A stretch of 10,390 nt of DNA, taken from Candidatus Eiseniibacteriota bacterium. GTDB taxonomy: Bacteria > Eisenbacteria > RBG-16-71-46. The DNA lies in assembly GCA_044222065.1 (NCBI GenBank), contig JBGAOA010000101.1:1-10390 (forward strand). The letters run 5' to 3'. Numbering within the stretch: position 1 is the first letter of the stretch; every line of letters starts with the position of its first letter. A program made the position numbers. Of the stretch, positions 6,001 to 10,390 are shown piece by piece.

Positions 6001-9000
6001 AGGAAAGTGCCGGAGAGTGTCGCGCCGAAGGCGCGGAGTTCGCAACGCCGAAATGCTCCCGCGCCCGCGAATTCCGCGGGCCCGGTGGCGGACGCCGGCA
6101 GTCAGCCACGCGCTCAGGGCGCCGGCGGAACGCTCAGCGGCTCAACGAGCCCGGGGGCTTCGAGGCGGCCGAAGACGTTGTAGGCGAGGCTGAACGCGAC
6201 GGCGAAGTCGCGGTCGTATTCGTCGACGTACGAGACCGGGCTCGGCGCGGACCGCTGTTCCACCCGCGAGGCGCCGAGGCTCAGTTGCAGGCGGTCCTCC
6301 AGGTAGTAGGTGACGTTCGCGGACACCGCCAGCTGCCAGCGATCCAAGAGGGTCGTGCGGGCATCGGATTCGTGGAGGATCACGCGCTCGTGGAGGATCG
6401 AGCCGGTCGCGAGCCAGCGGTCGGCCACGATGTAGCCCACGGATGCCGTCGTCGTCGCCTGCAGGCCGTCGTACTTCGATTGCAGCGGCAGCAGCAGCTC
6501 GCTCTCGCCATCGAACTGCCAGCGATGTCCGAGCGGGCGGTGGTGCTCGATGCGCGCGCCCCCGGACAGCACGTCCGACGCTTCGTGGCTGGAGTCCGAC
6601 ACGTGCTGCGTGTTCGAAGTGACGAGCACTCCCGTGTCCCAGAACGACGAGGACTGCTGGAGGTCGAGCCGTGAGATCCGGCTCTCGTCTTCCGCCGAAA
6701 CGACGAGCCCCGCGAACGTGCCGCGCTCGCGCGTGATCGGCGAAGACGGCAGCAGGTCGTTTCCGCCGTACCTGCCGAACAACGGCTCCACCGCGCGGAG
6801 CAGGGCGTCCGGGGACCAGCCCTCATCCGACAGCGCACCGTCCGAATCGAGGACGCGCTCGATCTCCTTCCAGATCGCGCGCGCCGGGCGCTCGAGGGTC
6901 GCGCGGTAGCCCGAGCGCAGCGCGAGCACCGCGGCGAGACGCTGGCGTCCCTCGGGCGAAAGCGGACGCGCGAGCGCGCCGCTCTCGCGCAGGCGTTCCT
7001 CGAGCACGTGCGCTTCGTAGACGCTCGTCGCATCGCGCACGCGTCCGTATCCCGCAGCGAGGCTCGCTTCGAGGCGATTGAAGTAGGTCCAGCGCGCGCG
7101 GCTCTCGTTCTGCAGCGAGCGGAAGTCGTAGGCGGTCGTGACGGCGTGTTGGTCGCGCTCCGAGCGAATCCACTGCTGACTCTCGATACCCGAGACCAGC
7201 GCGCGCAGGTCGAGACCGAAGGGGCGGGCGGACGGGTACCAGCGCCGGCCGCCGTTTACGGACCACTGCTCGTCGGTCTGGCGGGTGCGCGAGCGCTCGT
7301 CGTTCGCGGAGACGCCGAACGGATCCGAGTAGAAGCTGTGGTAGGTCCCCGACGATCGCGAGCCGCCGCCGGTGGCCGAGATCTGGAGGTCCGTGCGCGA
7401 GGGATCGGAATCCCACAGCCACCTCGCGGACGACGAGAGCCGCCCGTACCACGAACGCGAATCCGAGGCGCTCGAGGCGAACGCGGACGCGCCCGATCGA
7501 GCCGTGGTCGAGACCGAGAGATCGAGCCCGCTCGCTCGATGAGCCGGAATCCGGAACTCGGAATAGTCGTCGGCGAGCGCGAGGGCGGGGGACAGAACGG
7601 CGAGTACGGCGAGGGTCGAGAGAAGCGCGCGGCGCATGGAAGCCTCCGGCTGCGGTCGGCGGAGCGACGACGCCGCGAGGTTCGAGGGGAGATGGGTGCG
7701 GATACTAGGCGCGAGACCGTCTGCGCGCGAAGGACTTCGCGCGATGCCCCCGAGGTCCGGGACACGACGGCACACCCGCGCTCGTCAATTCCGCGCCGCT
7801 CGGAAGGATTTTCCTTTTCGCGTTCCCGCGCGCGCTCCTAGAATGCGCGCTCGTCACTGGCCGTGTCGTTGCCGTCTGCGCACGACTTCTCGCACTTCCC
7901 CCGGCAACGGCACGCGCCGTGACGAGCGCTCGCGACCCCCTCGCGAGCCCGCGCGTCGAGCGACGCTCCGCGCACCCAGCCCGACGCCTAGCGGTACAGC
8001 GCCTTCACGGAGCCCCAGGTGGAGCGTTTCGCAGGGTCCGCGAGGAAGTAACACGTGTAGATCGAGGGAGCCTGGTACTGGAGCAGCATCTGGCCCGCCG
8101 GTACGCCGATCGGAATGCTCCCTCCAGCCGCCGCCGGCTGGTCGAGACGAATGCGATCCAACACGACACACATCCCGCGGTCGCAACCGCCGCACGAACC
8201 CGGACCCACCGACTTCGCGTGGCTGATGACGAGACGACACCCGTAGTAGTGGACTTCAGCCTGAAGCGGAACGACCTGGGCGAGCGGAACGCCCAGCACG
8301 ACACCGAACGTCGTCATGCCGGGCACCGGATAGTCGATCGACTGGGGCCCGAGTCCTCCGATCGGCGGCGACTGCCAGCTTCCAGCATCGCACGCGGAGT
8401 AGCCCGAAAAGTCGCCGCTCACGGTGACGGCGCCGTTGCGACACGCCGAAGCGCCCTTGATCTGCCACCAGGGCACGAGCGAGCCGGGCGGATCCTGCCG
8501 AATCGTGAAGAAGGCGGCGATGCCCATGAACTGCGTGACGCCCTCGGGCGCGATGAAACTCACGACGGCGACATCGAGTCCGGAGTTGGAATCGCACGCG
8601 AACGTCTTGTCGGACGCAGCCGCCGCGCCGTCCGTGCAGTCGTTCCACGCGAAGTTCATCGCGGGTGCGGCCGCCGCGGGATCCGAAGTGATCGCGAACG
8701 CACAGGCGACGAAGGCTGCCGATGCGAGCGCCTTCATCGGTACAGCGCCTTCACGGAACCCCAGGTGGAGCGGTGGGTGGGGGTGCAGTAGCCCATGCAC
8801 ACGGAAGGGTCTGGAGCCTGGTAGGTCACGTGAGCTCGCGTGCCGACGCTGACAATGTCCACGTTTCCTCCCGGAGATCCCGTCGGCTGCACGAGCCTGA
8901 GTCTCGCGAGCCGGAAGCACCATGGAATCGAGCACCCAACACAAGCACCCGTTCCCACCGTCTTCGCGTGAGACAGAACGATCTTGACGCCGTAGTAGTG

Positions 9001-10390
9001 CACGTCGGCAGTCAGCGCCACCACGTTCGCGACGGGAACAGCCACGACCCCGTTGCCCATCGAGTGTCCCGGCGTGGGGAGGTCGTTCGTAACGGCGCCG
9101 ACCCCTCCGACGGCGGGCACGCTCCACGCGCTCGCGTCACACGCGCCCGAGGATGCCGTGAAGTCCCCGTTGAGCGTCAGCGCTCCGTTTCGGCACTTCC
9201 CGACCCCCTTCACCTGCCACCAGGGGGCGGTCGCTCCGCAGGTTCCCTGAGTGATCTCGTAGTAGATCTCCACGCTGATGAACTGGTTCATCCCCGTCGG
9301 CGCCACGAAACTCGCGACCATCACGTCGGACCCAGCGTTCGTGTCGCAGGCGAAGTTCTTGTTGAGGGTCGCCGTCGCGCCGTCGATGCAGTCGTTCCAC
9401 GCGAGGTTGATGGCGGGCGCCGACGTGGCGCGGGGCGGCGAGAGCAGCTGCGCGCACGCGACGAGGACGGCGGCTGCGAGCGCCTTCATCGGTACAGCGC
9501 CTTCACGGAGCCCCAGGTGGGGCGGCGAGCCGCAGTGCAGCCGTGTCCGACGCACGCAGTCAGCTCCGAGGACTGATACGTGACGAACGAATTCGTGCCC
9601 GCATCTCTGATGTCTACGTTTCCACCGGGCGCGCCGGCAACCTGCGCGAGCGTGACCCGCTCGAGCTGAAAGCACCACGCCATCGAGCACCCGAAACACG
9701 CTCCGGTCCCGGTGGTCTTGAAGTGGGACAGCACGAACTTCACTGCGTAGTAGTGCACATCTGGGGTCAGCGCGACGGAGTTCGAGGTGGGCACGCCGAC
9801 GGCCCCGTTACCTCTGGAAGTGCCGACGATCGGAGAATCGTTGGTCACTGCGCCCAGCCCGCCGAGCGCGGGAACGCTCCACGCGCTCGCGTCACACGCA
9901 CCAGTGGACGCCTCGAAGTCTCCATTCAGAGTCAGCGCCCCGTTCCGGCATCTGCCGGTTCCCTTCACGTGCCACCAGGGCACCGTAGCCACACACGTCT
10001 CTTGGCTGACTCTGAAGTAGACATCCACGCCCAGGAATCGGCTCATCCCCGCTGGCGCGATGAAACTCGCAACCATGACGTCGGCGCCGTCGTTCGTGTC
10101 GCACGCGAAGTTCTTGTCGAAGGCCGCCGTCGCGCCATCGATGCAGTCGTTCCACGCAAGGTTGATGGCGGGTGCGGACGTGGCCGGGAGTGCCGTGATC
10201 GCGAGCACACACGCGACGAAGGTGGCCGCTACGAGCGCCTTCATCGGTACAGCGCCTTCACGGAACCCCAGGTGAAGCGGTGCGTGGGGCTGGTGCCGTA
10301 GCACGCGCTCTCGCTACCGGACTGATACGTCACGTGGGCACGCCAGCCGATGGCGGTGATGTCCACGTTTCCTCCCGGAGCACCCGCTGG

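Follow-up and report, generated by a model that had tools for sequence, protein, structure and literature searches.

The window, a 10,390-nucleotide stretch of DNA from a Candidatus Eiseniibacteriota genome (contig JBGAOA010000101.1 of assembly GCA_044222065.1), codes for five copies of the same short C-terminal tail, all on the minus strand. Four of them lie in an array at 7988-10390 that a preliminary description of this DNA had singled out as tandem genes; the fifth belongs to the gene at 5351-5968, which falls outside that range. The tagged genes are as follows.

5351..5968, minus strand: 205-aa secreted protein, unrelated to the tandem paralogues, that has two Ca-binding repeats of dockerin-like type and ends in ...GPVSSRRASWGELKLIYR; code for the tail at 5354-5401
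7988..8737, minus strand: 249-aa secreted cohesin-like, Cys-rich protein ending ...DPAKRSTWGSVKALYR, defined by its ORF, start and tail, with a signal-peptide-like N-terminus
7991-8038, minus strand: code for the 16-residue tail of the 7988..8737 gene
8734..9489, minus strand: 251-aa paralogue ending ...CTPTHRSTWGSVKALYR; tail coded by 8737-8784; 4-nt overlap with both neighbours
9486..10244, minus strand: 252-aa paralogue ending ...CTAARRPTWGSVKALYR; tail coded by 9489-9536
10241..10390, minus strand: 3′ part of a fourth paralogue in the array, truncated where the contig stops; the protein ends in ...SPTHRFTWGSVKALYR, with the code for its tail at 10244-10291

The three complete tandem genes overlap one another by 4 nt, and the proteins encoded at 9486..10244 and 8734..9489 are 67–69% identical. 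Contig C15 continues the array, since the tail of the fourth copy recurs there (C15:792-917). The body of this copy on C15 (881-1474) ends in a different frame and has no tail. The tandem arrangement therefore stands for three complete copies with their tails, but the fourth copy looks disrupted. The 7988..8737 protein, which was included in alignments A1 and A2, matched no Pfam or NCBIfam family. The 5351..5968 protein gave a weak match to Dockerin_1 (E 0.076, 13.7 bits, under the cut-off), and its gene has a paralogue without the tail at C23:9782-10693.

The tandem proteins represent a large family, hereafter the window family. A word-based homologue search with the window protein returned only two relatives, and an exhaustive profile search was used instead; this one family alone comprised 2788 cluster representatives at E up to 0.001. 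Ten members had either no name in public sources or only that of 'hypothetical protein'. Among the 151 best proteins of the family, all 132 of up to 320 aa bear the tail (120 in its strict form, 12 as near variants). The 19 long members, which have 2–5 copies of the domain, bear no tail, and 18 of them end in a type IX secretion system (T9SS) C-terminal domain (CTD).

An AlphaFold2 model of the 8734-9489 protein (pLDDT 92.7) shows a beta-sandwich spanning residues 26–226. Confidence is 93–98 within the domain and drops to 73–55 over the last 20 residues, which contain an 8-residue helix (243–250) modeled with low confidence. The tail is thus predicted to lie outside the folded domain, as a short helix joined to it by a flexible linker. 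An earlier AlphaFold model built from 11 sequences (pLDDT 72), now superseded, also puts the tail outside the fold; a Foldseek search with it gave only weak, generic beta-sandwich matches. In a structural search with the newer model, cohesin modules were the best matches and occupied most of the top 20. The first of them, 2vo8, had a Z-score of 9.2 (rmsd 3.3 over 130 residues), which barely exceeds the usual best score for unmatched models, and the next cohesin scored 8.5. No Pfam family, Cohesin included, matched the sequence even at E up to 10, and the nearest named Atlas cluster (score 0.83) has Cohesin on only 16% of its members. Eight conserved Cys residues suggest disulfides. Cohesin-like modules in these phyla come in two formats, a single module with the tail and multiple modules with the T9SS domain.

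A strictly C-terminal motif

The expression W[GSA].[IVLM]K.[LIVMF][YFW][RK], run in six frames and without gene calls over the 4,210,817-base host genome, matched 40 times. In 38 cases the match abuts a stop codon, in two it ends one residue short, and there were no matches elsewhere. The preliminary count of 40 C-terminal occurrences and none elsewhere is thus reproduced independently of annotation. All 40 tails are real, but the set was incomplete: a search with a tail profile added six divergent tails (for example, WGRIKASYR and WGALKSSFR), raising the total to 46, with scores falling from 17.7 to 10.2 bits at the gap that separates tails from the rest.

The consensus is P-x4-[ST]-W-G-x-[IVL]-K-x-L-Y-R-COOH, its core being the final 9–10 residues. 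Among 39 distinct tails, W, G, K, the last R and [ST] at −10 are present in 100%, Y in 97% and L in 92%; the upstream positions are looser (P at −15 in 66%, T at −16 in 58%, R/K at −13 in 60% and R at −12 in 48%). This recount agrees with the position counts first given. Over its last 16 residues the tail has a net charge of +3.5 in the host genome and +2.0 in other genomes. The hydrophobic moment, 0.54 as a helix and 0.53 as a strand, leaves the two conformations undistinguished.

The 27-mers that code for the motif are highly diverse, with 38 distinct sequences among the 40. At the codons for W, G, K, L, Y and R, variation amounts to 0.238 at third positions, compared with 0.025 at first and 0.004 at second positions. 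Variation so strongly concentrated in third positions indicates selection on the protein and not on the DNA. The tail is modular, lies strictly at the C-terminus and is maintained by selection on the protein.

These data also refute the trivial explanation that the tail arises by chance, from a DNA repeat or through faulty annotation. A reversed-pattern control gave no matches in 201, 41 and 51 genomes as opposed to hundreds of true matches, all of which stop at true stop codons of long ORFs; moreover, the diversity of the 27-mers and the synonymous variation are at odds with a repeat.

Carriers of the tail and the T9SS CTD

A Sec-type N-terminus was found in 35 of the 40 carriers in the host genome, the other five being short or cut ORFs of 41–125 aa, so that the earlier statement that all full-length members have signal peptides holds. 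In other genomes, 55 of 59 complete carriers have such an N-terminus. Carriers are mostly 190–340 aa long, and their domains are unrelated: NHL, cupredoxin+LTD, DUF642, PPC, GEVED, LamG-like, DUF6923 and choice-of-anchor X in the host genome, and CHRD, LTD, beta-helix, CBM96 and DUF7450 elsewhere. All known carriers come from uncultured organisms. Two tagged genes overlap S8 subtilase genes by 4 nt, as had been described.

The relationship of the tail to the T9SS CTD is one of mutual exclusion. None of the about 208 CTD-bearing ORFs in the host genome, collected with a CTD profile built from that genome, has the tail. Within the LamG-like, GEVED and NHL paralogue groups of the host genome, proteins end either in the tail, which takes up 10–19 residues after the shared domain, or in a CTD of 92–107 residues. 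Members of one domain family may thus have the tail where others have the T9SS CTD, and the two never occur on one protein.

The tail and the T9SS type A CTD (TIGR04183/PF18962-type Por_Secre_tail) have much in common. Both occupy the extreme C-terminus of Sec-exported proteins of FCB-group bacteria, and both are modular, present on unrelated domains and encoded by scattered genes without a dedicated neighbour. At the sequence level, the likeness is limited to a basic residue 5–6 positions from the end and an often final Arg: the tail has K at −5 and R at −1, both in 100%, and host CTDs have R/K at −6 in 80% and R at −1 in 51%. Whereas the tail is a predicted short helix, the CTD folds into an Ig-like domain, about 60–100 residues long, with motifs B, D and E. 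It ends in R-R followed by four hydrophobic residues and has no counterpart to the W-G...K..Y core. CTD carriers are also large (median 754 aa in the host genome), whereas tail carriers are small (median about 230–250 aa). The shortest described T9SS signals are far longer than the 10–19-residue tail; the 'short' CTDs of Prevotella intermedia retain motifs B, D and E (PMC11969387). Tails taken as 40 residues gave no match to a CTD-type Pfam family or to any NCBIfam model, CTERM models included, at E up to 10; the sole Pfam rows were weak and unrelated. No Pfam or NCBIfam model describes the tail.

Spread across phyla and the search for machinery

The tail was initially thought to be specific to Eisenbacteria, but this does not hold. 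The pattern occurs in 170 of 201 genomes of the host phylum, with no control matches. A second GTDB phylum, which includes a Latescibacteria-labelled MAG, has it in 36 of 51 genomes. There are 16–26 copies in MAGs labelled Gemmatimonadota, Fibrobacteraceae and Verrucomicrobiia, and the tail is also present in records labelled Krumholzibacteriota and Zixibacteria. In a scan of the collection, 126 of 126 distinct matches close real ORFs at true stop codons. Tailed proteins number dozens in the host and thousands across related uncultured phyla.

Even genomes negative for the strict pattern are not necessarily devoid of tails. In four of five such genomes checked, a relaxed pattern (two control matches in all) was terminal, mostly as variant tails of the form WGKIKxxY[RKH] at stop codons. 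The window family was absent from all five. This changes the earlier picture, in that apparently tag-free genomes carry these variants.

The host genome encodes the T9SS parts SprA, PorU and PorV, with seven PorV/PorQ-family barrels and two PorU-like peptidases in all. T9SS was found in every tag-bearing genome examined (PorV family in 200/201; SprA in 51/51 of the second phylum and in 5/5). Because all of these phyla have T9SS components, finding them together with the tag is uninformative. As candidates for the machinery in phylogenetic profiling, neither PorV/PorQ (200 of 201 genomes, with none missing from the 41 of the tag-poor family f10) nor SprA (51/51) discriminates; because strict-pattern-negative genomes still bear variant tails, such profiling had no true negatives.

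No neighbour gene recurs beside tagged genes. In the host genome, their 4-kb surroundings contain 164 ORFs, and the only large cluster among these consisted of 26 ORFs joined via C-terminal stretches, most of them CTD-like by eye. In 20 regions around clustered tagged genes of 12 other genomes (311 ORFs), no candidate machinery gene was found, and CTD carriers (16/311) were the sole non-tagged family that recurred beyond near-synteny of related genomes or a single small cluster. Both sets bear out the earlier remark that tagged genes have no shared neighbour. A 508-aa signal-peptide protein encoded in the window (6114-7640, minus strand), which has no family match, was rejected as a machinery candidate: it is present in 45 of 201 genomes, and no tagged gene adjoins it at nine other loci. 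The neighbour and profiling analyses yielded no receptor, processing site or anchor chemistry for the tail. Literature searches on Eisenbacteria sorting or type IX secretion, choice-of-anchor, PorV2/PorU2 and the tail letters gave no mention of the motif.

What the tail may do

The same tail closes many secreted proteins and stands where a type IX secretion domain would usually be, so that it probably addresses them to the cell envelope as a label not described before. An element that is modular, terminal, selected at the protein level, interchangeable with the CTD, located outside the fold and without a recurrent neighbour looks as a sorting or anchoring signal should. These properties, together with the lack of any model match, agree in part with the preliminary description, which read the tail as an undescribed signal of this kind; its restriction to Eisenbacteria is not supported. 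A minimal last-strand form of the T9SS signal, the alternative raised there, would share with the CTD end just the basic residue at −5/−6 and the final Arg. That the tail is a very short, self-contained C-terminal sorting or anchoring signal for Sec-exported proteins in several uncultured T9SS-bearing FCB phyla is, in our judgment, an even call.

We infer that the tail decides location, is read by a protein, leads outward and is linked to the T9SS. In the mechanism that we propose, Sec would carry the protein across the inner membrane, and folding would take place in the periplasm, with the tail remaining exposed via its flexible linker. A protein receptor in the envelope would then recognise the tail at its free carboxyl end and either direct the protein to the outer membrane or cell surface or retain it there. 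The tail may thereby serve small single-domain proteins as the T9SS CTD serves large ones, and its likeliest reader would be a T9SS-linked outer-membrane carrier. A more specific version of this mechanism, which we put forward tentatively and with more doubt than belief, is a third, ultra-short class of type IX-linked signal. Here, a dedicated carrier of the PorV/PorQ family, or else another new receptor in the outer membrane, would recognise the 10-residue W-G-x-[IVL]-K-x-L-Y-R-COOH. Small folded proteins of Eisenbacteria, Latescibacterota and uncultured phyla near them would be exported or anchored at the surface in this way. If so, a peptide would replace a folded CTD of 70–100 residues.

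C-terminal sorting signals are a means of recognising whole classes of surface and secreted proteins in genomes. To our knowledge, the discovery of each has brought a further processing machine to light: sortase, exosortase, rhombosortase, PorU. The tail is present on about 46 proteins per genome here, and much of the uncharacterised set of small secreted proteins in several uncultured soil and sediment phyla bears it. An address label of this kind would provide a simple rule for predicting the surface and secreted proteome of these organisms, would imply a novel receptor and could offer a 10–16-residue tag, much smaller than the T9SS domain, for directing passenger proteins.

Direct anchoring to the membrane or LPS, in which a short cationic amphipathic helix lying in a membrane leaflet would hold periplasmic proteins without a receptor or export step, seems to us unlikely. 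E. coli PBP5 and PBP6 have C-terminal helices that act as membrane anchors and, like the tail, these are amphipathic, cationic and attached to Sec-exported soluble domains. Both AlphaFold runs give a helix for the last eight residues, one face of a helical wheel collects W, V/I, L and Y, flanked by K and R, and the helical moment and the net charge point the same way. However, the helix has merely ~2.5 turns, and the moment is equal for a strand. Helices of the PBP5/PBP6 type exceed the tail in length and differ in sequence from family to family, whereas five tail positions stay invariant from phylum to phylum; lipid binding seldom requires a (near-)invariant W, G, K, Y and final R, with Gly inside the supposed helix. 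Membrane anchoring also leaves the strict carboxyl-end position unexplained, and the presence of the same domains on T9SS-exported proteins argues for an extracellular location.

It is distinctly unlikely, in our view, that the tail is a docking peptide that binds a receptor domain on a scaffold or on CTD-bearing cargo, so that subunits are held in a surface complex or co-exported with T9SS cargo. The cohesin-like fold of the window family, the resemblance of its CTD-bearing relatives with 2–5 copies to scaffolds and the dockerin-like repeats of the tagged neighbour (a weak match) speak for it. So do the translational coupling of two family members to S8 subtilase genes, one subtilase having a C-terminus CTD-like by eye, and the cluster of 26 mostly CTD-like ORFs near tagged genes. 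Yet no partner was found, and with the tail on so many unrelated domains it would need to be a general one; the cohesin likeness, moreover, exists only at the level of fold, near the score of unmatched models and with no Cohesin Pfam match. A degradation, activation or quality-control mark, that is, a ligand of a PDZ-type or tail-specific protease and not an address, appears very unlikely. PDZ domains and tail-specific proteases do bind free C-termini, which the tail needs, and two carriers are coupled to subtilase genes. But bacterial ligands of this type favour hydrophobic ends, making a final Arg unusual, and a protease gene adjoins just 2 of the 40 carriers. Such a mark is also hard to square with 46 proteins per genome across phyla and a one-for-one exchange with the CTD.

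Of the known C-terminal signals, those of PEP-CTERM/exosortase, LPXTG/sortase and GlyGly-CTERM/rhombosortase are also short, lineage-restricted motifs on many unrelated secreted proteins per genome. Choice-of-anchor domains (Haft) accompany signals of this type, and a choice-of-anchor X domain (NF041940) is present on one tail carrier. These signals end with a hydrophobic membrane-spanning stretch followed by a basic cluster, whereas the position profile of the last 25 residues reveals no hydrophobic run in the tail, which is charged throughout. The OMP beta-signal, too, is short, closes the protein chain and combines a Gly with hydrophobic and aromatic residues in alternation; it is read by BAM, has an aromatic last residue and belongs to a beta-barrel, whereas the tail ends in Arg in 40 of 40 cases and the modeled carrier is a soluble beta-sandwich. 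Lpp-type attachment to peptidoglycan uses a C-terminal Lys, in contrast to this Arg; variant tails end in R, K or H.

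A conserved C-terminal tail on secreted proteins

Five genes of the window, all on the minus strand, encode proteins that end in W-G-x-[IVL]-K-x-L-Y-R-COOH. Three are complete tandem paralogues with 4-nt overlaps between them, and none of the tagged proteins of the window matched a Pfam or NCBIfam model. The genes are as follows:

157-822, minus strand: KDPG aldolase (family match)
920-2410: PMT_2 glycosyltransferase (family match)
2675-5275: AsmA/YhdP-like protein (family match)
5351-5968, minus strand: tagged gene unrelated to the tandem set, outside the range of the preliminary description
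6114-7640, minus strand: 508-aa signal-peptide protein without a Pfam or NCBIfam match
7988-8737, minus strand: tagged tandem paralogue 1, complete ORF ending in the tail
8734-9489, minus strand: tagged tandem paralogue 2, complete ORF ending in the tail
9486-10244, minus strand: tagged tandem paralogue 3, complete ORF ending in the tail
10241-10390, minus strand: tagged tandem paralogue 4, 3' end only, cut by the contig end

The array continues on another contig, C15 (C15:792-1474). There, body and tail of the fourth copy are in different frames. The body (C15:881-1474) closes with ...SHANQRVLREETWTSPPSAGVPT and has no tail, and the tail (C15:792-917) matches the end of the window exactly. 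This copy looks disrupted, a possible cause being a frameshift, a deletion or faulty assembly.

The preliminary description had reported 40 terminal tails in this genome and none elsewhere, based on the regular expression W[GSA].[IVLM]K.[LIVMF][YFW][RK]. Applied to the whole 4.21-Mb genome in six-frame translation, it gave the same result: 40 matches, 38 directly before a stop codon and two one residue earlier, and none away from a C-terminal end. A recount agreed with the reported frequencies of residues at each tail position, and signal peptides on full-length carriers were likewise found, as 35 of the 40 proteins have Sec-type N-termini and the remaining five are fragments. The total, however, is higher, since a profile of the tails detected six additional divergent ones (e.g. 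...WGRIKASYR, ...WGALKSSFR and ...FGSVKQLWR), with a clear score gap below them, bringing the number to 46. The possibility that the tail is a DNA repeat could be ruled out: the 40 tails are coded by 38 distinct 27-mers, and codon variation at the invariant residues is concentrated at third positions (0.238, vs 0.025 at first and 0.004 at second positions), indicating that the protein is under selection. Of 39 tails here, 26 have a Cys 14-25 residues before the end, as do 80 of 124 tails elsewhere.

Carriers in this genome include proteins with NHL repeats, cupredoxin plus LTD, DUF642, PPC, GEVED, LamG-like, DUF6923 and choice-of-anchor X domains, along with many that belong to no family. Carriers are generally small proteins; in other genomes they have a median length of 231 aa, and 55 of 59 complete ones have signal-peptide-like N-termini. 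Pfam matches (CHRD, LTD, beta-helix/NosD, CBM96, ThuA, DUF7450 and NHL) were obtained for 14 of 58 complete carriers from these genomes, the other 44 matching nothing in Pfam. As for the Cys-rich family of the tandem genes, ten members are publicly unnamed or named only 'hypothetical protein', and in the Atlas the 30 clusters closest to the family likewise bear the label 'hypothetical'.

No Pfam or NCBIfam model matched the tail, nor was the motif found in the literature searched. PEP-CTERM and LPXTG-type signals include a membrane-spanning stretch, the OMP beta-signal has an aromatic last residue and Lpp ends in Lys. The tail is unlike all of these, because its end has no membrane-spanning stretch and its last residue is neither aromatic nor Lys. 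Its likeness to the C-terminal domain (CTD) of T9SS cargo in this genome is limited to a basic residue at -5/-6 and the final Arg. According to one account, even the shortest T9SS signals described retain motifs B, D and E, with PorV as their predicted binding partner (PMC11969387). The tail is a genuine C-terminal tag, widespread and previously undescribed.

Distribution across genomes and phyla

Genomes were surveyed with a DNA pattern for W-G-x-h-K-x-L-Y-R-stop, and the same pattern read backwards served as a control. All 41 relatives contained the pattern, as did 170 of 201 phylum genomes (both tallies include one unpublished genome, G026), while the control had no match in any of the 201. 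In f10, a seemingly tag-poor family of the phylum, the strict pattern occurred in 16 of 41 genomes. A relaxed pattern matched four of the five f10 genomes checked among those without it, mostly at variant tails adjoining stop codons (e.g. WGKIKMRYR-stop, WGWIKANYR-stop and WGAIKRLYQ-stop). Four f10 genomes of a small-genome lineage (G048, G050, G054 and G096) have neither the strict tail nor the family of the tandem genes; the small number of tails they do have are variants of the form WGKIKxxY[RKH]-stop, with another residue in place of the Leu at -3.

The preliminary description regarded the tail as specific to Eisenbacteria, a view that did not survive wider searches. A scan of 185,579 species genomes yielded at least 125 loci with the pattern, and all 126 distinct matches listed end at a true stop and close ORFs. 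Among the matches listed, depositors' labels in record titles name Eisenbacteria, Krumholzibacteriota, Latescibacterota, Zixibacteria, Gemmatimonadota and Fibrobacteraceae, in addition to many unclassified MAGs. Copy numbers are 25, 26, 26 and 16 in MAGs labelled Latescibacteria, Gemmatimonadota, Fibrobacteraceae and Verrucomicrobiia, respectively. The MAG labelled Latescibacteria belongs to a GTDB phylum in which 36 of 51 genomes have the pattern and none the control; this set of 51 shares no genome with that of the window's phylum. Upstream of the core, tails read ...P-[VT]-E-x-x-[ST]-W-G... outside Eisenbacteria and ...T-P-A-R-R-x-[ST]-W-G... inside, so that the constant part is P-x4-[ST]-W-G-x-[IVL]-K-x-L-Y-R-COOH.

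The tail and the T9SS CTD as alternative endings

About 208 ORFs of this genome (median length 754 aa) have a classical T9SS-type CTD at their end, closing with R-[RK]-h-h-h-h-R, and none of them has the tail. In three domain families, some members have the tail and others the CTD; the tail adds 10-19 residues after the shared domain, compared with 92-107 for the CTD.

Domain families of this genome that occur with either ending
LamG-like: tail, C5:3789; CTD, paralogue C87:11672
GEVED: tail, C64:6479 and C32:43185; CTD, C64:26826
NHL: tail, C32:29209 and C41:16260; CTD, C87:10214 and C68:39996

The same is seen within the family of the tandem genes, for which an exhaustive search with a profile yielded 2788 cluster representatives (E <= 0.001). 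Endings were compared in 151 proteins drawn from homologue searches. All 132 members of up to 320 aa have the tail, in strict form in 120 and as a near variant (K to R or R to H) in 12, whereas 18 of the 19 long members (572-4077 aa, 2-5 domain copies) end in a CTD and none of the 19 has the tail, either terminally or internally. That the two endings are alternatives to each other is the central result. Large proteins of uncultured bacteria from the profile search (P0004-P0030; 686-4077 aa), with 2-5 cohesin-like domain copies and a T9SS CTD, look like scaffoldins.

AlphaFold2, run with 86 aligned sequences, predicted a confident beta-sandwich for the protein of 8734-9489 (mean pLDDT 92.7, pTM 0.85). 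Within the domain itself, residues 26-226, pLDDT is 93-98, and it drops to 73-55 over the last 20 residues. Residues 243-250 (WGSVKALY) are modeled as a short helix, also in a run with a shallow alignment. In the model, the tail is therefore an appendage on a linker rather than part of the fold. The best matches in structural searches extend over residues 23-226 only and are to cohesin modules (2vo8, Z 9.2, rmsd 3.3 over 130 residues; 2w1n, Z 8.5; many others in the top 20). As the family, which has eight conserved Cys residues, has no Cohesin match in Pfam, the modeled likeness is at the level of the fold only.

The tagged protein at 5351-5968 (minus strand) has two dockerin-like Ca-binding repeats (DQDGDGDVDASDLAILNGRVG...) right before the tail, with a weak match to Pfam Dockerin_1 (E 0.076). 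Taken with the cohesin-like fold predicted for the tandem genes, these repeats point tentatively to an assembly of the cohesin-dockerin type in the phylum. At two loci (C14:773-3987 and C81:21657-25030), an S8 subtilase gene (811 and 867 aa) is followed by a tagged cohesin-like gene belonging to the family of the tandem genes, with the 4-nt overlap noted previously, a layout suggesting protease-partner pairs. The terminal stretch of the C14 subtilase resembles a T9SS CTD by eye.

Possible role and candidate machinery

What might the tail do? It is modular and terminal, occurs on signal-peptide proteins, is exchanged with the T9SS CTD and is predicted to lie outside the fold. These features make a sorting or anchoring signal, as originally proposed, a putative role to which we give an even chance; that the tag is undescribed stands, its restriction to Eisenbacteria does not. 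The narrower proposal of a sorting signal with a T9SS-linked route is rather doubtful. The tail might instead anchor proteins directly in a membrane, act as a docking peptide for surface assemblies, or be a ligand of a protease or PDZ domain.

The neighborhoods of tagged genes in this and other genomes contain no recurrent gene, in line with the earlier observation. The 508-aa neighbor in the window was rejected as tail machinery, being present in only 45 of 201 phylum genomes, mostly of the window's own family, and having no link to tagged genes elsewhere.

This genome encodes SprA, a PorU-PorV locus (PorU, 468 bits; cut-off 420) and seven barrels of the PorV/PorQ family, and a PorU-like gene (C38:54333-58814, minus strand) lies 4 kb from a triplet of tagged genes. 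Since all genomes examined have T9SS parts, whether or not they carry the strict tag, co-occurrence of the two proves nothing. The PorU-like gene is not PorU2 (NF052324; 70 bits, cut-off 450), nor is C21:1478-2623 PorV2 (NF052325; 139.6 bits, cut-off 325); PorV2/PorU2 was not found as a described system in the literature searched. Four of the seven PorV/PorQ-family genes are near genes for TonB-dependent-receptor-like proteins of 889-943 aa (C55:30816-39086, C38:25273-33803, C84:2605-9556 and C80:9023-17674). Two of these four loci are also near proteins of about 987 aa with a PorZ-like C-terminus and one is near a GWxTD-domain protein; the four look like repeated cassettes.
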